A stretch of 64,000 bases of DNA from Actinomycetota bacterium (GTDB lineage: Bacteria > Actinomycetota > Actinomycetes > S36-B12 > CAIYMF01): contig WLRQ01000007.1 of NCBI GenBank assembly GCA_009697815.1, positions 158 to 64,157 on the forward strand, given 5' to 3'. The translations under genes and the position numbers were made by a program. The notes below the pieces were generated by a model that saw only the letters and a program-made list of their open reading frames with translations, searched no databases and was not told the origin of the DNA. Shown in pieces: positions 39,052-56,410 of this stretch (positions are counted from its first letter, which is position 1; every line of letters begins with the position of its first letter).

Positions 39052-39871
39052 TTCGGCGAGCAAGCGCGCTGCGGTGCTTGGTCATCCGATCGCGCACAGT
39101 CTCTCGCCGGTTCTCCATCGGGCGGCATATGAGGCGCTGGGCCTGAACTGGACGTACGAGCGCGTCGATATCACGGGCGACAACCTGGCCGACTTCATGG
39201 CTGGGCTCGACGAGACCTGGGCCGGCCTTTCGCTCACGATGCCACTCAAACGCGATGTGCTGGCCCTGCTCGACCACGCGGATCCACTTGTCTCCGCCAC
39301 AGGTGCTGCCAACACCGTGGTGCTCACCAACGGGCGCCGCTACGGCTTCAACACCGACGTCGATGGCCTGGTGCGGGCCCTAGCTGAACACTCGGACAGC
39401 CGGCCAATCCACACCGCCGCCGTCCTGGGAGGTGGCGCGACCGCCAGATCCGCGATCGCGGCGCTTGCCCGCGGGGGTGTCTCATCAGCCACCGCCTATG
39501 TCAGGCGCCCTGAGGCAGGTGAGGAGTTACTTCTCACCGCTGAGGCCCTGTCATTCCCCCTGAGTATCGACCTGTGGACGAATGCGGCAGGCGGCCTTGA
39601 CGCAGACCTCGTACTCAGCACCACGCCCGTCGGTGCTAGCGACCCGTTAGCTGCGTGGGTCCCTCGTACACCCGGACTGCTACTCGACGTCGTCTACGAC
39701 CCCTGGCCCACGGTGCTCGCCGCTGCCTGGACCGGGGCGGGCGGCCGGGTCGCCTCCGGGCTGGACCTTCTACTTCATCAGGCAGTGCTCCAGGTGGGTC
39801 TGATGACCGGGTTTGATGCGCCACTGGAGATCATGCGTGCGGCGCTCGAGCGCGCCGCACGCAGCCGCTAA
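39044..39871 (+). CDS. aroE: Shikimate dehydrogenase
   Basis: GHPIAHSLSP, LSLTMPLK, NTDVDG, LGGGATARS, LLHQA. Confidence 0.95.
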   Translation: MADSASKRAAVLGHPIAHSLSPVLHRAAYEALGLNWTYERVDITGDNLADFMAGLDETWAGLSLTMPLKRDVLALLDHADPLVSATGAANTVVLTNGRRYGFNTDVDGLVRALAEHSDSRPIHTAAVLGGGATARSAIAALARGGVSSATAYVRRPEAGEELLLTAEALSFPLSIDLWTNAAGGLDADLVLSTTPVGASDPLAAWVPRTPGLLLDVVYDPWPTVLAAAWTGAGGRVASGLDLLLHQAVLQVGLMTGFDAPLEIMRAALERAARSR

Positions 39872-39906
39872 CGAGTAGTCCGGCTCGGATCAGCGACCCG
39901 AACCTG

Positions 39907-39933
39907 CTCAAGCCAACTTGGCCGCATGCCGAT
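39907..39933 (+). promoter_or_regulatory. sigma28/FliA-WhiG-like promoter upstream of Roadblock gene
   Basis: CTCAAG-N15-GCCGAT, recurring in this locus. Confidence 0.7.
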
Positions 39934-39986
39934 GGGACCAGGTGAGGGTCGACTGACCCCGCTCCCGCGACGCGCCGAGGTGGCCC

Positions 39987-40715
39987 ATGACCCATCACCC
40001 GCAAGGACGCGCGGCTCGACTCGATCGCGCCCTGGTTGAGTTGATCAGGCAGGCACCTGAGCTTGAGGCCGCTGCGGTCGTGTCCTTTGACGGGCTTGCC
40101 ATGGCCTCCCTGTTGCCTGTGGGTATGGACGAGGACCGGGTCGCGGCGATGAGCGCGGCACTGCTGAGTCTGGGCGAGAAGGCTTCCCAGGGCCTTGGGC
40201 GCGGAGACCTCTCGCAGGTCTATGTCGAGGGCGAGTCCGGCACGGTCTTCCTGGTCGCGTGTCAGGACGAGGCCGTGCTCGTGGCTGTGGCGGCCGCGGG
40301 CTCCAAGGCCGGGCTCATGCTCTTCGAGATCAGGCGTGCAGCGCAGACGATCGCCGAGATCCTCCTGACGGACAACACTTTCTATGTCGACGGCACGGAC
40401 GACGAGATTGATTTGTTCGAGCACGTCGACACCGAGTCTCTCGATACCGAGTCTCTCGATACCGAGTCAATCGACAGCGCGGCTCTCGCCGACGCCGCGG
40501 CGGCCTACGCCGAGTATCGGGCCGCGCAGTCACTGGGCCAGCCGACTCTGACGCAGGTGTTCTTGCCCGAGGCTCCCTCTCCCGCCTCGCCTTTGCTGAT
40601 GCCGTGGAACACCCCAGCGACGTCGGCGGGCGTGACCGAAGGGTTCGATCCGGCTTCGGTGTACGTCCCGGATGCCCCTCCGCGCAGCGGTGAGCCCCCG
40701 GGACCGTCCGGGTGA
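39987..40715 (+). CDS. Roadblock/LC7 (MglB/CvnB-like) protein with acidic Pro-rich C-tail
   Basis: VVSFDGL.MAS...DEDRVAAMSAALLSLGE...LGRGDLSQVYVEG..G...KAGLMLFEIRR Roadblock pattern in the first ~125 aa. Confidence 0.88.
   Translation: MTHHPQGRAARLDRALVELIRQAPELEAAAVVSFDGLAMASLLPVGMDEDRVAAMSAALLSLGEKASQGLGRGDLSQVYVEGESGTVFLVACQDEAVLVAVAAAGSKAGLMLFEIRRAAQTIAEILLTDNTFYVDGTDDEIDLFEHVDTESLDTESLDTESIDSAALADAAAAYAEYRAAQSLGQPTLTQVFLPEAPSPASPLLMPWNTPATSAGVTEGFDPASVYVPDAPPRSGEPPGPSG
40428..40472 (+). repeat. In-frame 15-bp tandem repeat x3 (DTESL-DTESL-DTESI)
   Basis: GACACCGAGTCTCTC GATACCGAGTCTCTC GATACCGAGTCAATC. Confidence 0.85.
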
Positions 40716-40826
40716 GCGAGCAATTGCGCCCGGATCCCGGACTGGGATTCGTCCAGAGCTAGCAAGCGCACGCCCGCACATGAACACCTAACCGAGCAAG
40801 TGCCGAGCGAGAGGAGGTGAGATCCC

Positions 40827-42134
40827 ATGAAACTGGAGGGATCCCTCGACGCGTTCGGCCTGGGCGATGTCATCACACTGTTGGCGACAACCGGGAAGTC
40901 CGGTGCTCTGCGCCTTCGACGCAATGAGTTCACGGGCCCTGCCGGTGTCGTGTGGTTCCGCGACGGGCTGATCGCGGGTGCGAGTCCGGATTCGTCCCGT
41001 GCTTCACTCCTGCGGCGCATCGTGGGCGCCGGAGCGGTCGATGACACCGCACTTCATGCCGCGGTGGCCCGCGCCAAGCCAGGTGTGGTGGGCGTGACAC
41101 GCGCGTTGATCGACGCCGGGGCAATCGATCAGGAGTTCGTCCGTGAAACAGCCGCCGACCAGGTCGTCGACGGGATCTTCGAACTGCTTCGTTGGACCGA
41201 AGGGGAGTTCGCCCTCGACTGCGAGGCGGTCGATGTCGACGATGTCGGAATCGCCCTCGAGCCGGCGCTGGTGCTCGCGCAGGCACGTGCCAGGTTCGAC
41301 TCGAGCGACCAGATCGACTCACTTGTTCCCGGGGGGCACACGGTCCTGGTCCTCCCGGTGACGCTCGCGAGCGACCCAGAAGTCACCCGGGATGAGTGGG
41401 CGCTCCTTAGCCTCGTCGACGGTCGTCGCAACGTCCGCCAGATTGCCGAGCTGACCGGACGCGGGGAGTTCGCGGTGTCCAGCACCCTCGCTTCCCTAGT
41501 CCATCGCGGGCTTCTCGTGGTCAAGGACGGGGCCCTGCCGGACCACGTCTCCGAGCTTGAACGCCGCCTAGCTCTCGTCGCGGACTATGAGGGCGCGCGT
41601 GATCCACTTCTCGATAAGTCACACCGTGACGGGTCGATCTCCTCTGATCGGCTGGTCCGCTCGTCGCCCGAGGGGCCAGGCGCGAACGGTATGACAGCGG
41701 CCGCGGCCCTGACCGCCGCGCGGGCCGCCCAGCGACTTGCCTCTGCGCAGTCCTCGCCGAGAAACGCTCGCGATGGCGGCCCCGCCACACGCGGAGCCGC
41801 GATGGCGTCCAGTCCAGGCACTGGCCGTTCCAGCGGCACAGCCACGGTTCCCGAGCGTGCCGGCATTGCGGCCTCAGCGCACAGCCCTTCTCTTGTCGCG
41901 CCGGAACGTGACGCGACCCCGGCTGCCACCACTTCGACCCGAACCTCGGTTGACTATGAGCCCTCGAGCACGGGGATGGGCGGCCTGCGAGCAGGTGGAG
42001 CAGAAGCAACCAGTACTGCCACGGCGCGACCGCTCGCTGCGCCCTCAGAGCGCGTCGACGGGGCAATCGGACGCGACCCGAGCGTCAACCGCAGCCTTCT
42101 GCTGCGGCTGATCGCCGGAGTGAGGGGGTTGTGA
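40827..42134 (+). CDS. DUF4388 (PATAN-like) domain protein with winged helix and CvnC-like C-terminal helix
   Basis: LEGSLDAFGLGDVITLL...KSGALRL N-terminus, WTEGEFAL, EWALLSLVDGRRNVRQIA wHTH, terminal RSLLLRLIAGVRGL. Confidence 0.82.
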   Translation: MKLEGSLDAFGLGDVITLLATTGKSGALRLRRNEFTGPAGVVWFRDGLIAGASPDSSRASLLRRIVGAGAVDDTALHAAVARAKPGVVGVTRALIDAGAIDQEFVRETAADQVVDGIFELLRWTEGEFALDCEAVDVDDVGIALEPALVLAQARARFDSSDQIDSLVPGGHTVLVLPVTLASDPEVTRDEWALLSLVDGRRNVRQIAELTGRGEFAVSSTLASLVHRGLLVVKDGALPDHVSELERRLALVADYEGARDPLLDKSHRDGSISSDRLVRSSPEGPGANGMTAAAALTAARAAQRLASAQSSPRNARDGGPATRGAAMASSPGTGRSSGTATVPERAGIAASAHSPSLVAPERDATPAATTSTRTSVDYEPSSTGMGGLRAGGAEATSTATARPLAAPSERVDGAIGRDPSVNRSLLLRLIAGVRGL

Positions 42135-42712
42135 GGATGGCGACTCGACGGGTTCGGCGTCAGGGCGGACAAGCAGTGAAGATCGTGGTGACCGGTCCCT
42201 TCGCGGCCGGAAAGACGACGCTGATTCGCACGATAAGCGAGATCACGGTTCTCTCCACTGAGCGATCCATCAGCGATGACTCGAAGGCGCGGAAGGCTGA
42301 CACGACTGTGGCCATGGATTTCGGACGCATCACCATCGACCCGGATCTCGTCCTGTATCTGTTTGGCACCCCTGGCCAGGACCGATTCGACTTCATGTGG
42401 GAGATCCTGGGAGAGGGCATGCTCGGCTATGTCCTGCTGGTCGACGCCACCGATCGGGAATCCTTCGCCGAAGCTCGGGGAATTCTCGATGCATTCCGTC
42501 GGATGGCTCACGTGCCTTTCGTGGTCGCCTTCAATCGACACGACCACCCGCATGCCGCGGGCGAGAGTGAACTTCGCGAGGTCCTCGATCTCGAGGGGCA
42601 GATTCAGATCGTCGGCTGCGACGTCACCGAGAAGGACTCCGTGAAGAACGTCATGCTCGCTCTCCTCTTTGCCGTACTCGATGAGATCGAGTCAGCGGCG
42701 GTTCACGCCTAG
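42131..42712 (+). CDS. Small GTPase, MglA/CvnD-like
   Basis: KIVVTGPFAAGKTT, TTVAMDFG, LYLFGTPGQ.RF.FMW. Confidence 0.9.
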   Translation: MRMATRRVRRQGGQAVKIVVTGPFAAGKTTLIRTISEITVLSTERSISDDSKARKADTTVAMDFGRITIDPDLVLYLFGTPGQDRFDFMWEILGEGMLGYVLLVDATDRESFAEARGILDAFRRMAHVPFVVAFNRHDHPHAAGESELREVLDLEGQIQIVGCDVTEKDSVKNVMLALLFAVLDEIESAAVHA

Positions 42713-42775
42713 CCGAGAATGAGCGCCGTGCGAATCACTCGGTGGTGGAGTCGACGATGGCACCGCGTCACAAGA

Positions 42776-42991
42776 ATGGTCACAAATAGGACACTTCCCA
42801 CCATTGGGACACCGCGTGTGTCGCCGTCCCTCGCCGATGAGCCGGTCACCACAGGGGTCGGTCTGGTGTTCTCCGATGGCTCCACCGTGGAACTTCGGGC
42901 GGACGATCCCCGCGTCACGGCTTTCCAGGCGGCGGCCGCCGCTCTCCTCGGGGCTACAGGCGAGGGTCGATACTGCCGAACAGGTGAATGA
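42776..42991 (+). CDS. Small hypothetical protein upstream of pilB (start uncertain: 42776 or 42818)
   Basis: Protein-like core VGLVFSDGSTVELRADDPRVTAFQAAAAALL in the GTPase-pilB gap. Confidence 0.5.
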   Translation: MVTNRTLPTIGTPRVSPSLADEPVTTGVGLVFSDGSTVELRADDPRVTAFQAAAAALLGATGEGRYCRTGE

Positions 42992-43059
42992 GGGATTCCA
43001 CGAGACCTCGAGGCATGCCGATCGTCCCGCCATGTACCACTCCGCCGGAAGGAGCACCT

Positions 43060-44736
43060 GTGAAGCAGCTCGGTGAGATCCTCCTGACCGGTGGCCTGGT
43101 CTCGCGCACCCAGCTCGAGGAAGCGCTCGCGGAGCAGACTGAGCTCGGCCGCAGTCTCGGCCGCATCCTCGTCGACCGGGGTGTCTTGACCGAGGCCCAG
43201 TTGGTGGCCGCCTTGGCCGCTCAGATCGGCATGCGTTTCGTCGATCTCAGCGATATCCAGGTTGATGGCTCAGCCCTCGCCCGCGTGCCCGGCTACGTGG
43301 CGCGTCGCCACACCGCGATCCCGATCGGGTTCGAGGACGGCAAACTCGTGGTCGCCATGGCCGACCCGGCCAACGTGTTTGCGATCGACGACATCCGGTC
43401 AGTCGCCGGAAACGGGGGCCATCTCGACATCAAGCCGGTGGTTGCCACGCGCAATGACGTCGTTGCCGCGATCGATCGCTACTACCGCGCGGGGGAGGAG
43501 CTCGATGACCTCACCACCGAGCTCGATATGGGGGAGGACGAAGAGGAGCTCTCCAAGGTCAAGGAGATAACGGAGGACGCTCCGATCGTCAGGTACGTCA
43601 ACCTCCTCATCACCCAAGCGATCCAGGACCGGGCGTCGGACATCCACCTCGAACCGACGGAGCACGACCTCAGGGTGCGGTACCGCATCGACGGCGTGCT
43701 CCACGAGGTCATGCGCTCACCCCGCGCCATCCAGTCTGGTGTCATCAGCCGGCTGAAGATCATGGCGGACATCAACATCGCCGAACGTCGCATTCCTCAG
43801 GACGGACGCCTATCCGTGACGGCCCATGGGAAGAAGGTCGACCTGCGTGTAGCGACCCTGCCGACGGTGTGGGGCGAGAAGGTCGTCATGAGAATCCTGG
43901 ACAACTCCACGGCCCGGATGGACCTCGAGGACTTGGGCTTTAGTCCCTACAACTTCGGGATTTTCTCCCAGTCGTACATGAAGCCGTACGGGATGATCCT
44001 GGTGACGGGGCCCACGGGCTCGGGCAAGTCAACCACCCTGTACGCGGCACTCAATGTCGTGAACAAGCCCGAGGTCAACATCATCACCGTGGAGGACCCG
44101 GTCGAGTACCGGCTTCCGGGTGTCAACCAGGTGCAGGTCAACAACAAGGCCGGCCTGAACTTCGCCTCAGCCCTGCGCTCGATCCTGCGGTCCGACCCCG
44201 ACATCGTCCTGATCGGCGAGATCCGCGATCACGAGACCGCCCAGATCGCGATCGAGGCCTCGCTGACCGGTCACCTCGTGCTCTCGACCCTGCACACCAA
44301 CGACGCTCCGAGTGCCATCGTGCGTCTGACCGAAATGGGCATCGAGCCCTTCCTGGTGGGCTCCGCCGTCGACTGTGTCCTGGCCCAAAGACTCGCACGA
44401 CGGTTGTGTCCCAAGTGCAAGGAGCAATACGAGCCTAAGGCTGAACACCTCGAGAGCATCGGGTACAACCCCCGTGACGATGACCCGCTGCCGACTTTCT
44501 TCCGCCCGATCGGCTGTTCGAACTGCTCCAAGACCGGCTACAAGGGCCGCCTGGCCCTTCATGAGGTCATGGCGGTCGATGACTCCATCGAGCGTCTGAC
44601 CGTCGAAAGGGCCTCCTCCACGGTGATCGGGCGTACTGCGGTGGCCAATGGCATGCGACTGCTGCGCGAGGACGGCCTGCGCAAGGCCAGTCAGGGCATC
44701 ACCTCGCTCGATGAGATCTTCCGCGTCGTCACCTGA
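43060..44736 (+). CDS. pilB: Type IV pilus assembly ATPase with MshEN-like N-terminus
   Basis: RASDIHLEP, GPTGSGKST, TVEDPVEY, IGEIRD, TLHTNDA, CPKC/CSNC zinc site; GTG start behind AAGGAG. Confidence 0.95.
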   Translation: MKQLGEILLTGGLVSRTQLEEALAEQTELGRSLGRILVDRGVLTEAQLVAALAAQIGMRFVDLSDIQVDGSALARVPGYVARRHTAIPIGFEDGKLVVAMADPANVFAIDDIRSVAGNGGHLDIKPVVATRNDVVAAIDRYYRAGEELDDLTTELDMGEDEEELSKVKEITEDAPIVRYVNLLITQAIQDRASDIHLEPTEHDLRVRYRIDGVLHEVMRSPRAIQSGVISRLKIMADINIAERRIPQDGRLSVTAHGKKVDLRVATLPTVWGEKVVMRILDNSTARMDLEDLGFSPYNFGIFSQSYMKPYGMILVTGPTGSGKSTTLYAALNVVNKPEVNIITVEDPVEYRLPGVNQVQVNNKAGLNFASALRSILRSDPDIVLIGEIRDHETAQIAIEASLTGHLVLSTLHTNDAPSAIVRLTEMGIEPFLVGSAVDCVLAQRLARRLCPKCKEQYEPKAEHLESIGYNPRDDDPLPTFFRPIGCSNCSKTGYKGRLALHEVMAVDDSIERLTVERASSTVIGRTAVANGMRLLREDGLRKASQGITSLDEIFRVVT

Positions 44737-44761
44737 GCGGGTCGACGCGTGCCCCCAGAGA

Positions 44762-44788
44762 CTCAAGCGAGGCCCCCATCTGGCCGAT
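44762..44788 (+). promoter_or_regulatory. sigma28/FliA-WhiG-like promoter upstream of pilT
   Basis: CTCAAG-N15-GCCGAT, 50 nt before GTG 44838. Confidence 0.7.
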
Positions 44789-44837
44789 GCCAGGGAGGAC
44801 GCCCGTTCGTATCGGGCCCGTAGGACGAGGAGTACCC

Positions 44838-46160
44838 GTGGAGACGACGCAGTACGACGCCGGCATGGCAAGGCCGGGCTACCCGGTGGCCTATCCCGCC
44901 GCGCAGTCTGCGCCCGCATCCTCGGGTGTGTTCCTGCCCGCCCCACCCCCCGCTCCCGTGCCCGCACCACCGGCAGCCGCGGAGATTCCGGAGAGCCCAC
45001 ACTCCAACGTTCCAGCGATGGCATCTGGGCCACTCTCGACAGGCTCCCTGCTCATGAACGGCCGTTCCTCGACCGAGCAAGGCGTCCGTGACGATGACTT
45101 CTCGCTAGGTGACGCGCTGACGGCCATGCTCGAACGGGGCGCTTCCGATCTCCACATCACCGCGGGGGCCCGCCCGATGGTCCGCATCTCCGGGTCTTTG
45201 GTACCGCTGGATGACTTCGCCCTTCTCACGCCGCCGGTGATCCAGCGGGTCATGTACGCGATCATCACGCAGGCCCAGCGCGAGAAGTTCGAGGAGAACC
45301 TCGAACTCGATTTCGCCTACTCGCTGCCCGGACGTGCCCGCTTCCGCGTCAATCTCTACCGGCAGCGCGACTCGGTTGGCGCGGCGTTCCGCGTCATCCC
45401 GTTCGAGATCAAGACCCTTGAGACCTTGGGGATTCCGACCTCAGTATCGAATTTCGCGGCCCTTCCGCGTGGGTTTGTCCTGGTGACCGGCCCGACGGGC
45501 TCGGGAAAGTCGACCACCCTGGCGGCGATAGTCGATCTCGCCAACCGGACTCGGCAAGACCACATCATGACGGTGGAAGACCCAATCGAGTTCCTCCACA
45601 AGCACAAGTCCTGCCTGGTCAACCAGCGTGAGGTGGGCGAGGACACCTGGTCGTTCACCAGTGCCCTCAAGCACGTGCTGCGACAGGATCCAGACATCAT
45701 CCTCGTGGGCGAGATGCGCGACCTGGAAACGATCTCGGTAGCCCTCACCGCCGCCGAGACCGGGCACTTGGTCTTCGCCACGCTTCACACCCAGGACGCT
45801 GCGCAGACCATCGACCGCATCATCGACGTCTTTCCGCCCCACCAGCAGCAGCAGGTTCGGTCCCAGCTGGCGATGGCCCTTCAGGGCGTGGTCTGTCAGA
45901 CCTTGGCCAAGACCGCAGACGGACACGGCCGCGTCGTCGCGACCGAGGTGCTCGTCGTCACACCTGCGGTTCGCAACCTGATCCGTGAAGGCAAGACCCA
46001 CCAGATCTACTCGGTGATGCAGGCCGGCGCGGCACATGGGATGCACACCCTCGACCAGCACCTCGCTGATCTGGTGCGCAGCCGTCAGATCACCTACGAG
46101 GTAGGCATCGAGAAGTGCCATCACGTGGAGGACTTCAACCGGCTCTGTGGCCGGGCCTGA
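44838..46160 (+). CDS. pilT: Type IV pilus retraction ATPase with Pro-rich N-terminal extension
   Basis: ASDLHIT, GPTGSGKSTT, RQDPDIILVGEMRD, TLHT, AVRNLIREGK (PilT-specific); RBS GAGGAG before 44838. Confidence 0.95.
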   Translation: METTQYDAGMARPGYPVAYPAAQSAPASSGVFLPAPPPAPVPAPPAAAEIPESPHSNVPAMASGPLSTGSLLMNGRSSTEQGVRDDDFSLGDALTAMLERGASDLHITAGARPMVRISGSLVPLDDFALLTPPVIQRVMYAIITQAQREKFEENLELDFAYSLPGRARFRVNLYRQRDSVGAAFRVIPFEIKTLETLGIPTSVSNFAALPRGFVLVTGPTGSGKSTTLAAIVDLANRTRQDHIMTVEDPIEFLHKHKSCLVNQREVGEDTWSFTSALKHVLRQDPDIILVGEMRDLETISVALTAAETGHLVFATLHTQDAAQTIDRIIDVFPPHQQQQVRSQLAMALQGVVCQTLAKTADGHGRVVATEVLVVTPAVRNLIREGKTHQIYSVMQAGAAHGMHTLDQHLADLVRSRQITYEVGIEKCHHVEDFNRLCGRA

Positions 46161-46190
46161 GCGACGGCATAGAGAGGACTGGATCAGACC

Positions 46191-47417
46191 ATGGCTTCAA
46201 CCGCCACGTTCGAATACGCCGTTCGCGATCGCGCCGGTCAGATAGTCACCGGCAAGATCGACGCTGAGTCAACGGCGGCGGTCGCTGCCAAGCTCAAGAG
46301 CATGGGGTACGCACCCGTCAAGATCTCGGCGGTTCGCAACACTGGCCTGCAGATGGATCTGAAACTGCCCAAACTTGGTGCGAAGGTCAAGCTCAAGGAA
46401 CTCGCGGTCTTCAGCCGTCAGTTCTCCACAATGATCAATTCAGGCCTGTCCATGCTGCGAGCCCTGTCCATCCTCGAAGAGCAGCAGCCCAACAAGACCT
46501 TTTCCGCGGTTCTCACCGAGATCCGCCTCGAGGTTGAGGCAGGCTCGGCTCTTTCGGTGTCGATGGCCCGCAATCCGGACATTTTCCCGCCTCTGATGGT
46601 GAACATGATCAAGGCCGGCGAGGTCGGGGGATTCCTCGACAAGGTGCTGGTCCAGATAGCGGACAACTACGAGTCCGAGGTCAAACTGCGCGGGAAGGTG
46701 AAATCAGCCATGACCTACCCGGTCGTGGTGCTGGTGATGGCCATCGTCATGACCATCGGCATGCTGCTCTTCATCGTGCCGACGTTCGCCGGGCTGTTCA
46801 CCTCCCTCGGAGGTGAACTCCCGGCCCCTACCCAGATCCTGGTGAACCTCTCAGCCTTTCTCAAGGTCGCCATACTCCCGCTGATCGTGATGGGCGTCGC
46901 TGGCTCGATCGTGTGGCGCCGGGTCAAGCACCGAGACGATGTGCGCAATGTCCTCGATCCGATCAAGCTCAAGGTGCCGATCTTCGGAAACCTGTTCCGC
47001 AAGATCGCCCTGGCTCGGTTCTGCCGCAACCTGGGCACGATGCTGTCCTCGGGGGTACCGATCCTCCAGAGTCTGGACATCGTGGCCGATACGTCCGGGA
47101 ACATGGTGGTGGCCAAGGCTGTGCGTGACGTACAGGAAAGCGTGCGCAGGGGCGAGAGCTTGACCGAGCCGCTGAGCAAGCACGACATCTTCCCGCCGAT
47201 GGTGACCCAGATGCTCGCGGTGGGCGAAGACACCGGCGCCCTCGACACCATGCTCCACAAGATCAGCGACTTCTACGACCAGGAGGTCGAGGCCACGACC
47301 GACCAGCTCACGGCCCTAATCGAGCCGTTGATGATCGCGGTGCTCGGTGGACTCGTAGGCTCGATGATCGTCGCCCTGTACATGCCGATCTTCAAGATCT
47401 TCGACCTGATCAAGTAG
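46191..47417 (+). CDS. pilC: Type IV pilus platform protein (GspF/PilC)
   Basis: FSRQFSTMINSGL, GEVGG.L, AMTYP, GEDTGALD, EPLMI..LG...YMPIF. Confidence 0.95.
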   Translation: MASTATFEYAVRDRAGQIVTGKIDAESTAAVAAKLKSMGYAPVKISAVRNTGLQMDLKLPKLGAKVKLKELAVFSRQFSTMINSGLSMLRALSILEEQQPNKTFSAVLTEIRLEVEAGSALSVSMARNPDIFPPLMVNMIKAGEVGGFLDKVLVQIADNYESEVKLRGKVKSAMTYPVVVLVMAIVMTIGMLLFIVPTFAGLFTSLGGELPAPTQILVNLSAFLKVAILPLIVMGVAGSIVWRRVKHRDDVRNVLDPIKLKVPIFGNLFRKIALARFCRNLGTMLSSGVPILQSLDIVADTSGNMVVAKAVRDVQESVRRGESLTEPLSKHDIFPPMVTQMLAVGEDTGALDTMLHKISDFYDQEVEATTDQLTALIEPLMIAVLGGLVGSMIVALYMPIFKIFDLIK

Positions 47418-47430
47418 GCCAAGACCCTCA

Positions 47431-47463
47431 GCGCCGCCCCGACTCACGTCGGGGCGGCGTTTT
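47431..47463 (+). terminator. Intrinsic terminator after pilC
   Basis: 12-bp stem CGCCGCCCCGAC/GTCGGGGCGGCG, TCAC loop, TTTT tail. Confidence 0.85.
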
Positions 47464-47712
47464 CCATGTCTGTAGCCGTGAGGCAGTCGCGTCGTGCCGC
47501 ACGTGCGAATGCGGAAACTCCTCAAGATTGCCTCAGCGAATCCTCAAGTCAGGCTATTTGAAACTCGACAACACATCTGTCAGCGCCGCGGATCTCCTCG
47601 GCGGCGCCGGTGCGTTCTCGGGTCAGCGGCAACGTTGGCAAAGTCTGCTCTCACGCTGCGACAACCGGTTCTGCTGGGCTTCACCCGAACAGCCGACACC
47701 GACCCGCTCTGA

Positions 47713-47740
47713 TTCAAGAACAGGGCCCGCAAGGGCCGAA
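47713..47740 (+). promoter_or_regulatory. sigma28-like promoter variant upstream of pilA1
   Basis: TTCAAG-N16-GCCGAA, at the same relative position as the motif before pilA2. Confidence 0.55.
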
Positions 47741-47801
47741 CAGACCAATATCGGCGGCGCCACAAGACCCGCCGAGAGCCTCGTCCCGAAAGGACAACGT
47801 C

Positions 47802-48290
47802 ATGCTGGCAAAGTTCCGCAAGTCCACTGAGCGTGCCGACGAGGGCTTCACCCTCATCGAACTGCTCGTCGTGATGATCATCATTGGCATCCTGGCTGCA
47901 ATCGCTATCCCCACGTTCCTCAACCAGCGCAAGAACGGTTGGAACTCCGCGTCCAAGACGGACGTATCGAACATCGCGCTGGCAGCTGAGTCCTCGGCCG
48001 TCGACAAGGCTGGTGACTTCACCCAGGTGTTCACCACCAACGTCGCTGGCACGGCGCTGAGCACGAGCGGAACCCTCGACGCGGGCAACCTCGTGGCGAA
48101 CCTGGAGTTCACGGGAACGCAGAACGTCGACATCGTGCTGGGCACCGTTGCGACGGCAAACACCTACTGCCTCGTCGGTCACAACACCAACCTCGGTGCG
48201 AGCGACGGATGGTGGACCTACAGCAAGGCCAAGGGCGGGCTCCAGCCCACGGTCGCCGTCTCTCTGGTAGCAGCCGAAGCTGCCTGCTGA
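47802..48290 (+). CDS. pilA: Type IVa major pilin, copy 1 (162 aa)
   Basis: Class III signal ...ADEG|FTLIELLVVMIIIGILAAIAIP; Cys pair; RBS AAAGGA. Confidence 0.93.
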   Translation: MLAKFRKSTERADEGFTLIELLVVMIIIGILAAIAIPTFLNQRKNGWNSASKTDVSNIALAAESSAVDKAGDFTQVFTTNVAGTALSTSGTLDAGNLVANLEFTGTQNVDIVLGTVATANTYCLVGHNTNLGASDGWWTYSKAKGGLQPTVAVSLVAAEAAC

Positions 48291-48299
48291 TCTGAGTCG

Positions 48300-48343
48300 G
48301 GATCTTGGGGGCCTGGGACCTTTCGGTCCCGGGCCCCCGATCC
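48300..48343 (+). terminator. Hairpin terminator after pilA1
   Basis: GGGGGCCTGGGACC-TTTC-GGTCCCGGGCCCCC. Confidence 0.7.
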
Positions 48344-48382
48344 AACTGGACGAAAGTGGCAAAAAGAATATGTGGGCAAGCG

Positions 48383-48409
48383 CTCAAGCCCTGTCCGATT
48401 CCCGCCGAT
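48383..48409 (+). promoter_or_regulatory. sigma28/FliA-WhiG-like promoter upstream of pilA2
   Basis: CTCAAG-N15-GCCGAT. Confidence 0.7.
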
Positions 48410-48474
48410 CAGTCAGTTGTTCGGCAGGGCCACCCACGGCTCGCCGAGAACCTCTTAACGAAGGGACGACGGGC

Positions 48475-48963
48475 ATGTTGGCTCGCATCCGTAAGTCGAC
48501 GGAGGGCACCGACGAGGGCTTCACCCTCATCGAGCTCCTTGTCGTGATGATCATCATCGGTATCCTCGCAGCAATCGCCATTCCCACGTTCCTCAACCAG
48601 CGCAAGAACGGTTGGAACTCCGCGTCCAAGACGGACGTGTCGAACTTCGCGCTGTCTGCTGAGTCCTCCGCCGTGGACAAGGGCGGAGACTTCACCAAGG
48701 TCTTCACCACCAACACGGCTGGCACGGCCCTCAGCACGAGTGGCGTCCTCCAGACCGCCAGTCTCGTGGCTGGGTTCGAGTTCACCGGCAGCCAGAACGT
48801 GGACATCACACTCGGCACCGTCTCGACGAGTAACACCTACTGCCTCGTCGGTCACAACACCAACCTCGGCGCGAGTGACGGGTGGTGGACCTACAGCAAG
48901 GCCAAGGGCGGGCTCCAGCCCAACGTGGCCATCTCCCAGGCTGCGGCTCAGGCTGCCTGCTGA
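48475..48963 (+). CDS. pilA: Type IVa major pilin, copy 2 (162 aa)
   Basis: ...TDEG|FTLIELLVVMIIIGILAAIAIP; 137/162 aa identical to copy 1 by manual alignment. Confidence 0.93.
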   Translation: MLARIRKSTEGTDEGFTLIELLVVMIIIGILAAIAIPTFLNQRKNGWNSASKTDVSNFALSAESSAVDKGGDFTKVFTTNTAGTALSTSGVLQTASLVAGFEFTGSQNVDITLGTVSTSNTYCLVGHNTNLGASDGWWTYSKAKGGLQPNVAISQAAAQAAC

Positions 48964-48978
48964 TCTAGCGCGAACACG

Positions 48979-49024
48979 TGGTGTGGGGCTTGGAACCGAG
49001 TGGTTCCGAGCCCCACACCATTTT
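48979..49024 (+). terminator. Intrinsic terminator after pilA2
   Basis: 19-bp stem TGGTGTGGGGCTTGGAACC/GGTTCCGAGCCCCACACCA, GAGT loop, TTTT tail. Confidence 0.85.
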
Positions 49025-49081
49025 CTCGTGCACCACACAACCGCTCTGCTCACCCAAGAGGACCTTGGTAACCCCATTTCG

Positions 49082-49108
49082 CTCAAGGCAGCGCGAATAT
49101 CGTCCGAA
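49082..49108 (+). promoter_or_regulatory. sigma28-like promoter upstream of minor pilin operon
   Basis: CTCAAG-N15-TCCGAA (one mismatch). Confidence 0.6.
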
Positions 49109-49143
49109 GACCGGTAGGGCCACGAGAGCAAAGGAGGCACGCC

Positions 49144-50463
49144 ATGACCATCACTGAGAGCATCAGAGCGCGTGCCCTCCGGCGCGACGACTCAGGCGTG
49201 TCCCTGATTGAAGTCGTGGTCGCGCTTTCCCTACTCATGGTCCTCGGCGTCACGGTCGCCGCGGGTTTGCTCGCAGTCCAACGCTCTGCCATGACCAGCA
49301 AGCAACGCAGCGCCGCCGCCAACCTGGCCACCCGCGAAGTGGAGATCGTCCGCAACTGGTTCCATTCAAGCGACAGCGCACCCCTGGCGGTCATGACCGC
49401 GGGCGATGCCACCAACGCCAGCCCCCTCCCAGGCCAGACCGGTTCACTCGTGGTGGACAACGTCGCGTACACCGTGAAGCGACAGGTCGCGTGGATGATC
49501 GCTGGGGCGGGAGCGAGCGCGTGTGATGGCGGAAGTGTCGTGTCCTACCCGAGCGTGAGCCTTCACGTTGAGGTCACCTGGGCAAACATGGGCGCGGTGC
49601 CGGCCGTCGTCTCTGACACGATCCTCACTCCGCCCAAGAGCGTGCTCAACGCCACCTACGGTTACCTCGCGGTGAAAGTCGTCAACAGCGCGGGTACCCC
49701 CAACGCCGGCCGCATCGTGACCGCCAGCGGCCCATCGGGAAACTTCAGCGACACAACTGGTCCGGACGGATGCGCAACCTTCGTTCTGAGCCTGCCCGGC
49801 ACGTACACCGCGGCCCTCACTGAGGGATCCACTGGTTTCGTTTCCTTCAACGGTTCGTCGAGCCAGACGGCCAGTATCACCACAGGTTCGTTGGTGGTGC
49901 GCACCTTCACCTACGACCTCGGCGAGTCCTTCCGTGTGACGCTCACACCTCCGGGCGGGTATGCACTTCCGGCGAGCTTGCCCGCCACGACCCTGGGCAA
50001 CTCCGGCATCCTGCCGGCAGGGCTGTCCTCCTTCACCTCGACCGCCGGTGGGACCACAGTGATCGGCCCCGTCTGGCCGTTCGCCTCGGGCTACAGCATC
50101 TGGGCGGGCAGTTGCCCCGATTCCGATCCGGCGCTCGATACCGGCAGGCCCACAGCTCTTGTGCCCACCAAGGGCACCACCACGAGCACCACTGCGGCAC
50201 TCCAGGGAATCGCGGTCACGACAACCCGCCTCGGGCTCCGGCAGTCCGCACAGGTTTCGGCCACGTACGCAGGCCCCGGTTCCTGCCCCGCGGGAGACAG
50301 CGTCCTCAACCTCGGGACCTCCAGCTCACTCGGCACGCTGAATACCTCGTTGCCCTACGGGTCATGGACCCTCTCGACGTCCATCGGTGGGCAGAATGTC
50401 AGCGCCCTCGTCGACGTCTCGTCCGCTGGCGTCGTCAGCGCAACCCTGAACGGCACGACATGA
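49144..50463 (+). CDS. Large minor pilin (PilV-like position) with extra C-terminal beta domains
   Basis: DDSG|VSLIEVVVA class III signal; 439 aa. Confidence 0.82.
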   Translation: MTITESIRARALRRDDSGVSLIEVVVALSLLMVLGVTVAAGLLAVQRSAMTSKQRSAAANLATREVEIVRNWFHSSDSAPLAVMTAGDATNASPLPGQTGSLVVDNVAYTVKRQVAWMIAGAGASACDGGSVVSYPSVSLHVEVTWANMGAVPAVVSDTILTPPKSVLNATYGYLAVKVVNSAGTPNAGRIVTASGPSGNFSDTTGPDGCATFVLSLPGTYTAALTEGSTGFVSFNGSSSQTASITTGSLVVRTFTYDLGESFRVTLTPPGGYALPASLPATTLGNSGILPAGLSSFTSTAGGTTVIGPVWPFASGYSIWAGSCPDSDPALDTGRPTALVPTKGTTTSTTAALQGIAVTTTRLGLRQSAQVSATYAGPGSCPAGDSVLNLGTSSSLGTLNTSLPYGSWTLSTSIGGQNVSALVDVSSAGVVSATLNGTT

Positions 50464-51200
50464 TGCGAGCCCTGGCATCGTCGCGCGCGCGCGTCCGTCG
50501 CCTGCGACGTTCTGACGACGGGGTCACCATGCCCGAACTTCTGGTCAGCATCATGGTTCTCGCTCTCCTGATGAGCTGTGTCGTGATGATGGTGACGGCA
50601 GGGCAACGAATATCGCTCGGAACCAAGGAGCGACTCGACCAGACGAATGACGCCACGATCTCCATCGAACGGATCAGCAGGAATCTGCGAACGGCCGTCT
50701 TGCAGAGCCAGCTCACCTCGAGCTGCACGCTCTCGAGTTGCACCGACTCAGCCTTCCTTAAGGGAACACGCACGAGCGTGCAGTTCTACGCGGACGTCGA
50801 CAATCCCAAGAACACGATCGGCCCAAGCCGGGTCACCTATGACGTCACCAACGGTGTCCTCACCGAGACCGTGCAGAAGCCGGATTCGCCGACTCCCGAC
50901 GCGAGCGGCTACCACTACTGCACCTCCGGAGTGGGATGCGTCATCCGCACGACGATCCTCGCCCGAAACGTGCTCACGACATCCGCGTTCTTCAGCTATT
51001 ACACGGCGGCAGATCCCGTGAGCGCCATCACGCTCGCGTCCGGTGTGGATCTCACGTCCTCCCAGCTGAAGTCGGTCGACAGCATCGATGTCTTCGTGCA
51101 GATCCAGGTGCCCGGCGGCGCTAACGTTGCGGGCTCCTCGATGATCCAACGGGTTGCGCTCCCCAATGCCGACAGCGTCGTCCGGACGACGGGAACATGA
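50460..51200 (+). CDS. Minor pilin (PilW-like)
   Basis: SDDG|VTMPELLVSIMV class III signal; ISIERISRNLRTA. Confidence 0.82.
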   Translation: MMRALASSRARVRRLRRSDDGVTMPELLVSIMVLALLMSCVVMMVTAGQRISLGTKERLDQTNDATISIERISRNLRTAVLQSQLTSSCTLSSCTDSAFLKGTRTSVQFYADVDNPKNTIGPSRVTYDVTNGVLTETVQKPDSPTPDASGYHYCTSGVGCVIRTTILARNVLTTSAFFSYYTAADPVSAITLASGVDLTSSQLKSVDSIDVFVQIQVPGGANVAGSSMIQRVALPNADSVVRTTGT

Positions 51201-52984
51201 TGATGCACAACAGATTCCGTGAGCTGCGCGAGAGCGACTCCGGGGCCGCCCTGATCATGGTCATCGGGTGGATGATGGTTCTCGCCCTCCTCGTGAGCGC
51301 CGCCCTCGGTTACGCGATTCAGAGCAACGTCGTCGCACACAAGGGTCAGGACTGGGGGAGCGCCCAGTCCGCGGCCCAGGCTGGCCTTGAGGATTACGTG
51401 GCCCGACTGAACCGAAACGACAACTACGCGAGAGTCTGGGATTGCACAAATCCGGCACTCCAAGGGCCCAACCAAAGCGGAAACACCTGCGGTTGGGGCG
51501 CAAACACCGTCACCGGTTGGATCCCCGTCATCGCCACTCAGCCGACAGGTCCTGCATTTCATTACGACGTCGACGCGAGCATGCTCGACCAGAGCGGCAC
51601 GATCAATGTGATGTCGACTGGACGCGTGGGCAAGGTCACTCGGACGATCCAGGCGGCTATCGGTCGCGGCGGTTCAACCGATTTCCTGTACTACACCGAC
51701 CTCGAGCACGCAGATCCCGCCAACGTCGGTGTCTACCCGTCCGGCACAACCAAGTACTTCTGCGGATCCACCGGCGCACAGAAGGACATCTACTGGTGGA
51801 GCCCGAGCATCAGTGGATCGAACCGCTCGAACTCCGGTTGCACGGAGATCGGCTTCGCAGCTGCCGACGTCCTCGACGGCCGCGTTCACTTCAATGACAC
51901 TCCCAAGCTCAACGCGACGGGGGCTACGTTCCTGAGCGGATTTGAGACGTCAAACCCGGGCTGCAAGACCGCAACCGCGCCGAACTACTCCGGGTGTCTC
52001 CGCAGTGGTAGCCCTATCCCGGTCTATGGAACGTCGGGGAGCCCTGTACCGCCGATCTATACCGACACTCTCTATCTGGACGACACCTCAGCGAAGTTCT
52101 CTGCCTACCCCGGCTGCCACTTCTATGGCTCGACCCGTATCAAGTTCAACAGCGACGCCACCATGACCGTGTGGAGCAAGGACAGCACCGGCAAGTCCAC
52201 CGGCACTGGGTGCGGCACCTTCAGCGCGGCCAATTCATCCCAGACGGTCGCGGTTCCGAACGATCAGGTCATCTACGTCTCGGCCGGCAGTGCGACCCAC
52301 CGCTGTCTTTCCTCTGAGATCGGTGACGGTCTCCCGCTAGGTACCTATACCGGCAGTGCGACCACGACGTATACCTATGACCTGACCATGCTCACCACGG
52401 ATCAGTTCTGCGGGCAGGGCAATCTTTACATCGAGGGCACAGTCAAGGGACGCGTCACCATGGCGGTGGAGAATTCCATCGTCGTCACCGGAGACCTCGT
52501 GCTAGCCAACGGGATCAACGGCACGGACCTCGTCGGACTGGTCGCGGGCAACTCAGTGCAGGTCTTCCACCCCTGGGTCGACACCTGGCAGAAGCCGTCG
52601 ACCACCTGGGGCTGGAAGAACGCCCCGGCCGCAGTGTCAGGCTGGCCGCACCGCTACATCGACCCCTCGACATCGGCCTATACCCCCACGTCCGGAATCC
52701 AGATTGCCGCCTCGATCCAGACCCTCCAGCACAGCTTCTGGGTGCAGCAGTACAGCCAGGGATCAGCCCAGGGCACGCTGCTGGTTCTGGGCTCCATCGC
52801 CCAGCGTTGGCGTGGCATCGTAGGACAGGGGTCGGCCGGCTACGTCAAGCTGTACAAGTACGACGCCCGCCTGAAGTACTCCTCGCCCCCCTATTTCCCT
52901 CAGTGGACCAACGCGAAGTGGGGCCCGCGCCACACCGGCGAGTTGGTGTCCACGTATAACTCCGCCGGGAAGTACGTAGGCTGA
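51197..52984 (+). CDS. Large PilX-like minor pilin lacking Glu5, candidate tip adhesin (ComZ/DUF4900-like)
   Basis: SDSG|AALIMVIG, AQSAAQAGLED, 10 Cys, C-terminal YKYDARL....PPYFP. Confidence 0.75.
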   Translation: MMMHNRFRELRESDSGAALIMVIGWMMVLALLVSAALGYAIQSNVVAHKGQDWGSAQSAAQAGLEDYVARLNRNDNYARVWDCTNPALQGPNQSGNTCGWGANTVTGWIPVIATQPTGPAFHYDVDASMLDQSGTINVMSTGRVGKVTRTIQAAIGRGGSTDFLYYTDLEHADPANVGVYPSGTTKYFCGSTGAQKDIYWWSPSISGSNRSNSGCTEIGFAAADVLDGRVHFNDTPKLNATGATFLSGFETSNPGCKTATAPNYSGCLRSGSPIPVYGTSGSPVPPIYTDTLYLDDTSAKFSAYPGCHFYGSTRIKFNSDATMTVWSKDSTGKSTGTGCGTFSAANSSQTVAVPNDQVIYVSAGSATHRCLSSEIGDGLPLGTYTGSATTTYTYDLTMLTTDQFCGQGNLYIEGTVKGRVTMAVENSIVVTGDLVLANGINGTDLVGLVAGNSVQVFHPWVDTWQKPSTTWGWKNAPAAVSGWPHRYIDPSTSAYTPTSGIQIAASIQTLQHSFWVQQYSQGSAQGTLLVLGSIAQRWRGIVGQGSAGYVKLYKYDARLKYSSPPYFPQWTNAKWGPRHTGELVSTYNSAGKYVG

Positions 52985-52990
52985 CGAACT

Positions 52991-53770
52991 GTGGCCGCAC
53001 TCGTGCTAGTCGTCACCCTGCTCGGACTGTTGATCGGGTCATTCCTCAATGTGGTGATCCATCGCGTCCCCTTGGGTGAGTCGGTCGTCAGCCCGCGCTC
53101 CCGATGCCCCGGCTGCGGGACTGAACTCTCGTGGTACGACAACATCCCCGTGCTGTCCTGGATCGTGCTCCGTGGCCGCTGCCGGACCTGCTCGACGCCT
53201 ATCTCGTGGCGCTACCCCCTCGTCGAGCTCGGCACCGGGCTGCTGTTCGGTGCCGTGACGTGGTGGTCGGGTGCCACGTGGGCTCTGCCGGCCTACCTCT
53301 ACCTCGCGGCCATCGGCGTGGCGTTGTCGGCAATAGACATCGACACCAAGCGCCTCCCGAACGCGATCGTGCTTCCGTCCTACGCGGTCGCCTCTGGCCT
53401 GCTGCTGCTCCCCGCTCTCCTTGAGGGGTATAGGACGTCGTTGCTCTACGCCGCGATCACGGGCATCGCGCTCTTCACGTTCTACTTTCTACTTGCCTTT
53501 ATTTATCCGGCAGGCATGGGATTCGGCGACGTCAAGCTCGCCGGCGTCCTCGGGCTCTACCTCGGCTGGTCCGGGTGGGGCCTGGCCGTAGTGGCCACGT
53601 TCGTGGCCTTTCTGCTCGGCTCGGTCGTCGGAGTTGTCGTGATGGTGCGTTCGGGCGGCGGGCGCAAGACCAAAGTTCCCTTTGGGCCTTTCATGCTCCT
53701 GGGCACATTCGCGGCACTGTTCTTCGGTCAAGGCGTCGTCGACTGGTATTTCGGGAGCCTGGGCATCTGA
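52991..53770 (+). CDS. pilD: Prepilin peptidase / N-methyltransferase (A24A)
   Basis: GSFLNVVIHRVP, CPGC and CRTC zinc motifs, catalytic AIDID and GFGDVKL, VPFGPFM. Confidence 0.95.
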   Translation: MAALVLVVTLLGLLIGSFLNVVIHRVPLGESVVSPRSRCPGCGTELSWYDNIPVLSWIVLRGRCRTCSTPISWRYPLVELGTGLLFGAVTWWSGATWALPAYLYLAAIGVALSAIDIDTKRLPNAIVLPSYAVASGLLLLPALLEGYRTSLLYAAITGIALFTFYFLLAFIYPAGMGFGDVKLAGVLGLYLGWSGWGLAVVATFVAFLLGSVVGVVVMVRSGGGRKTKVPFGPFMLLGTFAALFFGQGVVDWYFGSLGI

Positions 53771-53816
53771 ACCCAGGGGTTTCCGGCAGTTCTCGCGGAA
53801 AGGATCCCAACTTCGA

Positions 53817-53843
53817 CTCAAGCCCGGCCCCATATCCGCCGAA
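53817..53843 (+). promoter_or_regulatory. sigma28/FliA-WhiG-like promoter upstream of pilM
   Basis: CTCAAG-N15-GCCGAA. Confidence 0.7.
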
Positions 53844-53895
53844 AGCGGAGGGGAGGAATCACCACGACCGTGGTGACGGGCGAGAGGTGGGAACC

Positions 53896-55721: not shown

Positions 55722-55722
55722 C

Positions 55723-56388: not shown

Positions 56389-56410
56389 GCGACGAGGTCG
56401 AGGAGTCACG

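Follow-up and report, generated by a model that had tools for sequence, protein, structure and literature searches.

The window, by which we mean the whole analysed stretch of 64,000 nucleotides from an uncultured actinobacterium, carries a type IV pilus cluster between aroE and aroC. Genes were called with a codon-likelihood caller and identified by Pfam, which upheld the identities that had been predicted for the genes next to the motif described here. The cluster lies on the plus strand and consists of six transcription units, each headed by a two-block sequence of the CTCAAG-N15-GCCGA(T/A) type or a close variant of it.

The first unit (39987-44736) encodes a Roadblock/LC7 protein (39987-40715), a DUF4388 protein (40827-42134), a small Ras/Arf-like GTPase (about 42131-42712) and PilB (T2SSE plus MshEN, 43060-44736). 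Its promoter P1, an exact CTCAAG-N15-GCCGAT (39907-39933), precedes the ATG of the Roadblock gene at 39987. A non-coding gap of 347 nt separates the GTPase gene from pilB, and the GTG start of the latter at 43060 is backed by alignment with relatives. A 90-aa open reading frame within this gap (small90, 42719-42991) is unlikely to be a gene, given that its GC content is flat by codon position. The same gap contains, on the plus strand, a candidate weak seventh promoter, CTACAG-N15-GCCGAA (42954-42980), which lies 79 nt before the pilB start and has one mismatch in the -35 block, its TACA failing the pattern T(A/C)AA. Close relatives possess a perfect TCAAG-N15-GCCGA 31-73 nt before pilB, and the -10 block of the site in the window aligns with theirs; the activity of this seventh site in the present genome is uncertain. 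The original prediction had missed it.

The second unit (44838-47465), comprising pilT (44838-46160) and pilC (46191-47417), follows promoter P2, again an exact CTCAAG-N15-GCCGAT (44762-44788), ahead of the pilT GTG at 44838. Folding of the gap between pilC and pilA1 revealed a GC-rich hairpin with a T tract at its end (about 47431-47465). The two major pilin genes form units of their own. That of pilA1 (47802-48338; gene at 47802-48290, recognized by its N_methyl motif) starts with an ATG at 47802 behind the variant promoter P3, TTCAAG-N16-GCCGAA (47713-47740), and is followed by a predicted hairpin with a 14-bp stem (48307-48338). That of pilA2 (48475-49021; gene at 48475-48963, ATG at 48475) is preceded by promoter P4, an exact CTCAAG-N15-GCCGAT (48383-48409), and a terminator scan placed a 20-bp stem with a T tract at 48978-49021. 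In the fifth unit (49144-53770), three pilin-like or minor pilin genes (49144-50463, about 50529-51200 and 51197-52984) and the prepilin peptidase gene pilD (52991-53770) stand behind promoter P5, CTCAAG-N15-TCCGAA with a variant -10 block (49082-49108), before the first gene at 49144. The sixth unit (53896-57052) begins with the GTG of pilM at 53896, preceded by promoter P6, an exact CTCAAG-N15-GCCGAA (53817-53843), and continues with pilN, pilO and a gene for a 213-aa protein; a hairpin found by folding separates it from aroC.

Specificity and conservation of the motif

Four exact copies of CTCAAG-N15-GCCGA(T/A) had been predicted at 39907, 44762, 48383 and 53817, together with variants at 49082 (minor pilins) and 47713 (pilA1), all 35-70 nt before start codons. 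All six sites are there, on the plus strand. The -10 block and the start codon are separated by 53 nt (Roadblock), 49 nt (pilT), 61 nt (pilA1), 65 nt (pilA2), 35 nt (minor pilins) and 52 nt (pilM). Every site is intergenic and lies on the strand of its gene, at 35-65 nt well inside the limit of 200 bp that we tested, and between them the six head every transcription unit from aroE to aroC.

Compared with the WhiG-type -35 pattern T(A/C)AA, all six sites read TCAA, and the flanking bases of C-TCAA-G are kept. The -10 block is GCCGA in five sites and TCCGA in one, so that the CGA core is common to all, and T or A follows. The prediction that the -10 block equals the sigma-28 consensus was thus right for GCCGA(T/A), the only conserved part; the full GCCGATAA is not conserved, its final AA not being kept. 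Spacing between T(A/C)AA and GCCGA, tested over the range 15-17, is 16 in five sites and 17 at pilA1.

The motif is rare outside these positions. Apart from the four sites, no exact copy occurs on either strand of the window, in agreement with what had been noticed by eye, and exact matches to CTCAAG-N15-GCCGAW were absent from 100 dinucleotide-preserving shuffles of it. The genome (2.66 Mb) contains a single further exact copy, in frame within the smc open reading frame (C102:6608), which is best read as a coding coincidence. When intergenic, correctly oriented sites with no or one mismatch were counted over the genome, spacer 15 gave 15 sites, whereas only 1, 1 and 2 were obtained with spacers of 13, 14 and 17. 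No sigma-70-like promoter was detected in 39000-58500, where shuffles give 2.0, and neither a c-di-GMP riboswitch nor any other Rfam family was found in 39000-58000. Two sub-threshold Rfam matches in the latter region proved to be terminator hairpins.

Comparison with relatives revealed how strictly the motif is maintained. A search of 80 related pilus loci (1.2 Mb) for T[CA]AAG-N15-GCCGA gave 106 matches on the pilus strand and a single one on the opposite strand. Other spacings in these loci gave counts of 0-16; for T(A/C)AA and GCCGA, distances of 15 and 17 were found 3 and 6 times, respectively, versus 106 times for 16. The motif precedes orthologous Roadblock, pilB, pilT, pilA, minor-pilin and pilM genes, with spacers unrelated in sequence. 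Among the related loci, 10 have it before the orthologue of the Roadblock gene, 15 before that of the major pilin gene, 6 before that of the minor pilin gene and 9 before that of pilM, where it lies 40-79 nt upstream; for pilT, 18 of 27 loci with a PilT at least 73% identical carry the strict motif ahead of the gene and 3 more have it farther upstream. Positions that were not part of the search pattern, namely C before T and T/A after GCCGA, are also kept in relatives, and pil genes of Cellulomonas, Sanguibacter and Kineococcus loci are preceded by the motif as well. The six promoter signals of the pilus locus are real and conserved.

Counts over whole genomes are less telling. Among 121 genomes of the order, the exact motif reached a density of 1.20 per Mb in WhiG-bearing and 0.84 per Mb in WhiG-lacking members (controls 0.31 and 0.25), and these counts do not separate the two groups, because most matches outside pilus loci are coding. 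Since, in addition, the reversed-pattern control takes no account of codon structure, pilus clusters were compared directly. In two sister-family genomes without WhiG, both from one family, no motif precedes any pil gene of the pilus clusters.

The WhiG sigma factor, RsiG-like proteins and further candidate targets

A sigma-28-type sigma factor, possibly one that responds to c-di-GMP, had been expected outside the window. Indeed, the genome encodes a single member of the FliA/WhiG family, located on a contig other than that of the pilus locus (C102:28663-29745). Its score is 425.8 bits on the NCBIfam WhiG equivalog NF004935, where the cut-off is 343, and 285 bits on TIGR02479, where it is 189.6; the match to Streptomyces venezuelae WhiG (PDB 6PFJ) has an E value of 1e-113. 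Six other genes of the sigma-70 family, out of seven in total, do not belong to the FliA/WhiG family. The whiG gene is situated between lepB and rpsB-tsf-pyrH-frr-cdsA, a conserved neighbourhood of ribosomal and translation genes that is free of flagellar genes on both flanks; its lepB to rpsB-tsf context matches that in Streptomyces. Neither FlhA nor flagellin was found in the assembly, which is 93% complete.

A search for RsiG-like anti-sigma factors, suggested with the original prediction, yielded two proteins (C22 and C26) with E-x3-S-x2-R-x3-Q/H-x3-D motifs. For the C22 protein, the match to S. venezuelae RsiG (6pfj_T) has an E value of 1.7e-26; the C26 protein shows a weaker match to RsiG chains (E 2e-4). 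In both proteins one motif is perfect, and in the other His replaces the Gln that contacts c-di-GMP. The genome further encodes 11 GGDEF proteins, which indicate no more than that c-di-GMP is probably made.

Outside the cluster, the motif precedes a second pilT paralogue. It is also found before two LuxR-type regulator genes, and ahead of an atypical LuxR-type response regulator it is present in 23 of 30 family genomes. NCBIfam and homologue searches returned only generic NarL/FixJ names for this response regulator and did not identify it as WhiI or BldM. The divergent second RsiG paralogue has a candidate promoter of the form (C/T)T(C/A)AAGGTTT-N10-GCCGAW, kept in 12 of 30 family genomes. Unlike in Rubrobacter, no convincing WhiG-type promoter was detected ahead of the 11 GGDEF genes, whiG or the C22 rsiG homologue, the closer of the two.

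WhiG as the probable reader of the motif

We propose that (C)T(C/A)AAG-N15-GCCGA(T/A) is a promoter read by RNA polymerase containing WhiG, the only sigma-28-family sigma factor of the genome, and we consider this very probable. Region 4 of the sigma factor would read the -35 block TCAAG and region 2 the extended -10 block GCCGA(T/A), and we infer that transcription would begin a few bases downstream of the latter. Since the six promoters, with a possible weak seventh at pilB, head every unit, free WhiG would turn on the pilus machinery, its two major and its minor pilins and the associated Roadblock/DUF4388/GTPase module together. By homology with Streptomyces and Rubrobacter, activity of WhiG is probably gated by c-di-GMP through the RsiG anti-sigma factor; at high c-di-GMP, WhiG would be sequestered and the pilus genes would stay off.

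Could the two blocks be a binding site of a transcription factor, for instance of a LuxR-type response regulator, and not -35 and -10 elements recognized by an alternative sigma factor? In principle, a conserved motif ahead of co-regulated genes suits an operator equally well, and the copies before the genes of the two LuxR-type regulators could reflect autoregulation. The architecture of the sites makes this very improbable. The blocks are asymmetric and do not repeat each other in direct or inverted form, their orientation strictly follows that of the downstream gene (106 on the pilus strand versus 1 on the other), essentially one spacing is tolerated, and the sites lie 35-65 nt ahead of start codons. 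Moreover, both blocks match the sigma-28/WhiG consensus, and no other promoter-like element was found in the cluster. It is harder still to credit accidental similarity due to composition, or a by-product of local duplication with no regulatory role, which we regard as the most remote of the explanations weighed here. The cassettes of pilA1 and pilA2 arose by recent duplication, which could give two of the six sites a common origin, and the fifth genomic copy, in smc, is itself a coincidence of coding. Against this stand the failure of shuffled sequences to give any match, the unrelated flanks and spacers of the other sites and the conservation data, which already contradict an accident: in many genera the motif is found again at orthologous positions, with spacers that differ.

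That the motif is a promoter for another alternative sigma factor, ECF-type or SigB/F-like, is a further reading to which we give very little weight. The six additional sigma-70-family genes would supply candidates, and the -35 block TCAAG deviates from the classical TAAA. A GCCGA -10 block, however, is characteristic of sigma-28-family promoters and is not known from those of ECF or SigB/F sigma factors. The motif is also missing from the pilus clusters of the two relatives devoid of WhiG, and the -35 element published for WhiG2 is T(A/C)AA (bioRxiv 10.64898/2026.01.14.699351). Recognition by WhiG remains our preferred reading, in support of the originally predicted sigma-28-type pilus regulon.

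Relation to known WhiG and sigma-28 systems

Classical sigma-28 promoters, as used by E. coli FliA and B. subtilis SigD, follow TAAA-N15-GCCGATAA. The motif shares with them the two-block layout, the GCCGA core of the -10 block and a T-A-A-G-like -35 block; it differs in having TCAAG instead of TAAAG, a spacing one base longer and no conserved final TAA in the -10 block, and its targets are pilus genes instead of flagellar ones. Two queries were used by Denis et al. (2026, bioRxiv 10.64898/2026.01.14.699351) for WhiG regulons across the phylum: T(A/C)AA-N16-GCCGA for WhiG2, which equals our motif, and CTCA-N16-17-GCCGA for WhiG1, which the motif fits as well. The Actinoplanes element CTCA-N15-17-GCCGAA, named in the original prediction, is consistent with the WhiG1 consensus quoted there. 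Their search over 673 reference genomes accepted intergenic sites at most 200 bp from a start codon, a rule that the motif of the window satisfies exactly, and predicted type IV pilus targets of WhiG in Cellulomonadaceae, Sanguibacteraceae, Jonesiaceae, Cryptosporangiaceae and Rubrobacteraceae. The text of that preprint mentions neither Nanopelagicales nor Kineosporiaceae, and the present uncultured lineage is therefore not named in it. The nearest records of this group are labelled Nanopelagicales, Kineosporiaceae or Frankiales.

In Rubrobacter radiotolerans and R. xylanophilus, an (RsiG)2-(c-di-GMP)2-WhiG switch governs type IV pilus genes, and the pilus cluster has WhiG-type promoters whose transcription start sites have been mapped (Schumacher et al. 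2021, PMC8325347). Both there and here, a non-flagellated actinobacterium combines WhiG of the sigma-28 family with RsiG, and several WhiG-type promoters within the pilus cluster head separate pil units. Rubrobacter has two to three such promoters in the cluster; here there are six to seven and every unit is covered. Rubrobacter RsiG is a single-motif homodimer, whereas both RsiG-like proteins of our genome are of the twin-motif type; Rubrobacter WhiG also targets DGC/PDE genes, of which none was found among the targets here; and the Rubrobacter sites rest on mapped starts, those reported here on sequence. The RsiG-(c-di-GMP)2-WhiG sporulation switch of S. venezuelae (PDB 6PFJ/6PFV) includes a very similar sigma factor and a twin-motif RsiG homologue, and the atypical LuxR-type regulator as a conserved target is reminiscent of Streptomyces whiI, although the output of that switch is sporulation and here pili.

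In Actinoplanes missouriensis, sigma factors of the FliA/WhiG family direct the flagellar genes of zoospores as well as type IV pilus genes, a likeness to the sigma-28-family control of pilus genes proposed here. Its consensus, as quoted in citing papers, is CTCA-N16-17-GCCGAACT, and sites of the window fit CTCA-N17-GCCGA. Actinoplanes has four paralogous sigma factors, flagella and no RsiG, as opposed to one WhiG and two RsiG-like proteins in our genome, where neither FlhA nor flagellin was found.

A sigma-28 pilus regulon is thus not a new idea, because expression of pili under WhiG has already been published for both Rubrobacter and Actinoplanes and is predicted phylum-wide in the 2026 preprint; no new mechanism is revealed. 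What is gained is a clean operon map of the pilus locus, a set of extra candidate targets (the second PilT, the atypical response regulator and the RsiG paralogue) and, in the sharp spacing and strand specificity over 80 related loci, a good training set for prediction of WhiG regulons in metagenome-assembled genomes. The published switch linking c-di-GMP, RsiG, WhiG and type IV pili is extended to an uncultured actinobacterial group. We suggest, tentatively, that the regulon might be wired unlike those of Rubrobacter and Streptomyces: serving the pilus almost exclusively, through the cluster's six or seven promoters and one ahead of the second pilT; including, as its first operon, the Roadblock/DUF4388/small-GTPase module, which may set polarity or switch the pilus motor; and with WhiG driving the RsiG paralogue. 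If this is true, the WhiG-driven RsiG paralogue would constitute built-in negative feedback on the sigma factor, replacing the feedback that in Rubrobacter goes through c-di-GMP enzymes.

Probable promoter sites in the pilus locus and the genome

A complete type IV pilus locus is, by Pfam assignment, inserted between mltG-aroE and aroC. It runs from a Roadblock/LC7 protein, a DUF4388 protein and a small Ras/Arf-like GTPase through PilB (T2SSE and MshEN domains in Pfam), PilT and PilC to two major pilins, three pilin-like proteins, PilD, PilM, PilN, PilO and a 213-aa protein. Transcription units were drawn from our own calls with a codon-likelihood gene caller and from folding of the gaps. Six promoter-like sites head six such units. 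The first runs from Roadblock to pilB. The second, pilT-pilC, ends in a hairpin with a T tract, the third, pilA1, in a hairpin and the fourth, pilA2, in a terminator with a 20-bp stem. The fifth holds the minor pilins and pilD, and the sixth pilMNO and the 213-aa gene.

A pattern search of the window for CTCAAG-N15-GCCGA(T/A) returned four exact matches, at 39907 (Roadblock), 44762 (pilT), 48383 (pilA2) and 53817 (pilM), all on the + strand, while 100 dinucleotide-preserving shuffles of the window gave none. Two variants complete the set, CTCAAG-N15-TCCGAA at 49082 (minor pilins) and TTCAAG-N16-GCCGAA at 47713 (pilA1), the latter having a T in place of C in the -35 block and one more base in the spacer. 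The four copies and two variants thus stand where the original prediction had placed them; it had put the promoter-to-start distance at 35-70 nt, and we measured 53, 49, 61, 65, 35 and 52 nt from -10 block to start codon for the six sites in their order along the locus, a range of 35-65 nt. A seventh, degenerate site, CTACAG-N15-GCCGAA, lies at 42954, 79 nt 5' of the pilB start and inside a non-coding gap; in close relatives the corresponding site before pilB is perfect. A search of 39000-58500 for sigma-70-like promoters gave no match, against 2.0 in shuffles.

The assembly comprises 2.66 Mb in 112 contigs (66% G+C, 93% complete), the window lying within contig C80. The genome-wide scan that the original prediction had called for yielded only one exact copy outside the window, at position 6608 of contig C102; it is in frame within the smc gene, most likely a coincidence of coding sequence. 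Intergenic, co-oriented sites at most 250 nt from a gene and with no more than one mismatch are concentrated at spacer 15, which has 15 of them, compared with one each at spacers 13 and 14 and two at spacer 17. For TCAA-N16-GCCGA there are 9 intergenic co-oriented positions in this genome, compared with 1-2 at other spacings.

Some features of the locus deserve separate description. The pilA1 and pilA2 genes (47802-49021) are tandem duplicates, two monocistronic cassettes that each have a separate promoter and a separate strong hairpin. Two unusually long non-coding gaps, 42713-43059 (347 nt, before pilB) and 47418-47801 (384 nt, before pilA1), match no Rfam family, and the former contains the degenerate promoter only. 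The Roadblock/LC7, DUF4388 and small Ras/Arf-like GTPase genes (39987-42712) are the first of the unit that ends with pilB; this module may be either MglA/MglB-like or conservon-like.

Conservation in related loci and the probable cognate sigma factor

Eighty related pilus loci (1.2 Mb in total) were retrieved by PilT search, mostly from metagenome-assembled genomes labelled Nanopelagicales, Kineosporiaceae, Frankiales and Actinomycetes, and also from Cellulomonas, Kineococcus, Sanguibacter and Solirubrobacterales. Across them, T[CA]AAG-N15-GCCGA has 106 matches on the pilus strand and a single one on the opposite strand, other spacings giving 0-16 matches. Sites precede the orthologues of Roadblock (10 loci), pilT (about 24), the major pilin (15), pilB (about 10), pilM (9) and the first minor pilin (6), and their spacers are unrelated to one another in sequence. 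Of 27 loci with a PilT identity of 73% or more, 18 have a strict site no more than 650 nt from the conserved core, and in 3 others it lies farther upstream. A logo of 65 sites reveals conservation also at positions left unfixed, C before TCAA and T/A after GCCGA; the G after TCAA is conserved too, with the caveat that the training sites were picked as T[CA]AAG. The two blocks are conserved, the spacer between them varies in sequence but not in length, orientation is strict and the distance to the start codon is fixed, features that together argue that the motif is a promoter and not an operator.

The motif agrees exactly with the WhiG2 search rule already published, T(A/C)AA-N16-GCCGA, and is also compatible with the WhiG1 rule CTCA-N16-17-GCCGA (bioRxiv 10.64898/2026.01.14.699351). 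Seven sigma-70-family proteins are encoded in the genome, of which a single one, at C102:28663-29745, belongs to the FliA/WhiG family, bearing out the expectation of a sigma28-type factor encoded outside the window. Its scores are 285 bits against TIGR02479 (cut-off 189.6) and 425.8 bits against NF004935, the WhiG equivalog (cut-off 343), and it matches S. venezuelae WhiG (PDB 6PFJ) at E 1e-113. Neither FlhA nor flagellin was found in the 93% complete genome. The whiG gene is flanked by lepB on one side and rpsB-tsf-pyrH-frr-cdsA on the other, which is also its neighbourhood in Streptomyces. In some family members (G014, G028, G030, G015, G018) there is a second paralogue of FliA/WhiG type, more distant, which hits the WhiG model at E about 1e-45 to 1e-49; the window's genome does not have it.

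Two families within the order are without a WhiG-level match, one of them with genomes of 1.2-2.0 Mb. Exact-motif counts per whole genome did not separate WhiG-bearing from WhiG-lacking genomes and are uninformative, because most matches are coding. In the sister family, two WhiG-lacking genomes possess pilus clusters (PilT 58% identical) with no such site before any pil gene; within the limits of two genomes from a single family, this fits the WhiG assignment. The sequence data establish the motif, how specific and how conserved it is, and which protein components the genome has; dependence on WhiG, the start sites and the gating by c-di-GMP are inferred. The motifs of the pilus locus are very probably WhiG promoters, and transcription would start a few bases downstream. 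Region 4 of the WhiG holoenzyme would read TCAAG and region 2 GCCGA(T/A), and all pilus units would be transcribed in parallel.

Further candidate targets, RsiG-like proteins and c-di-GMP

Candidate sites also occur outside the cluster. A second PilT paralogue (357 aa; C36:47827, in the region C36:47662-48900) has CTCAAG-N15-GTCGAT 139 nt 5' of its start. An atypical LuxR/NarL-type response regulator with a poor receiver-domain match (C54:10656, in the region C54:10571-11276) is preceded by GTCAAG-N15-GCCGATAG, and (G/C)TCAAG-N15-GCCGATA(C/G) precedes its orthologue in 23 of 30 family genomes (L133-L161), representing all five genera. This regulator recalls whiI, a WhiG target in Streptomyces, by likeness only. 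Candidate WhiG-type sites likewise lie upstream of a second response regulator, on contig C35, and of several small or secreted proteins.

The search for an RsiG-like anti-sigma, also proposed originally, identified two twin-motif proteins in the genome by the pattern E-x3-S-x2-R-x3-Q-x3-D. One (C22:20829-21389) is similar to RsiG of S. venezuelae (6pfj_T; E 1.7e-26); the other (C26:3445-4038), a divergent paralogue, gives E 2e-4 against an RsiG chain from Rubrobacter. Each combines one perfect motif with one that has His in place of Gln; those of the C26 gene (region C26:3371-4038) are ETRVSYWRRIIQARLD and EDKLSNFRRELHRRID. The genome also has genes for eleven GGDEF proteins. Judging by the homologous systems of Streptomyces and Rubrobacter, high c-di-GMP would lead to sequestration of WhiG in an RsiG-(c-di-GMP)2 complex, and pili would therefore be made at low c-di-GMP. 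By this analogy, gating by c-di-GMP through RsiG appears moderately likely.

PilB residues 3-55 (43060-43230) contain two tandem 24-residue MshEN-type c-di-GMP-binding motifs, 5 residues apart, an arrangement shared with V. cholerae MshE (PMC5013675). Since Gln3 and Ser32 take the place of the Arg that opens each motif, it is uncertain whether the motor binds c-di-GMP directly, though it may.

WhiG-type control of pilus genes is already known. Pilus clusters have WhiG-type promoters with mapped start sites in Rubrobacter radiotolerans and predicted ones in R. xylanophilus (PMC8325347), pilus and flagellar genes of Actinoplanes are read by WhiG-like sigmas according to work cited in that paper, and pilus targets of WhiG were predicted in five actinobacterial families (2026 preprint, bioRxiv 10.64898/2026.01.14.699351). 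The present genome stands apart in a few details. Each unit of the locus is headed by a promoter of its own, with a Roadblock/DUF4388/GTPase module as the first unit; there are two RsiG-like proteins, both with twin motifs; and no c-di-GMP enzyme gene is among the targets. No WhiG-type site was found in this genome before any GGDEF gene, whiG or the closer (C22) RsiG homologue.

The C26 paralogue, on the other hand, is preceded by a sigma-28-type CTCAGG-N14-GCCGAT, and among 30 family genomes (L108-L125) there are 12 in which (C/T)T(C/A)AAGGTTT-N10-GCCGAW lies 5' of its orthologue. One RsiG-like protein is thus apparently under WhiG control, and, if this is true, its promoter could provide negative feedback by WhiG on an anti-sigma paralogue.
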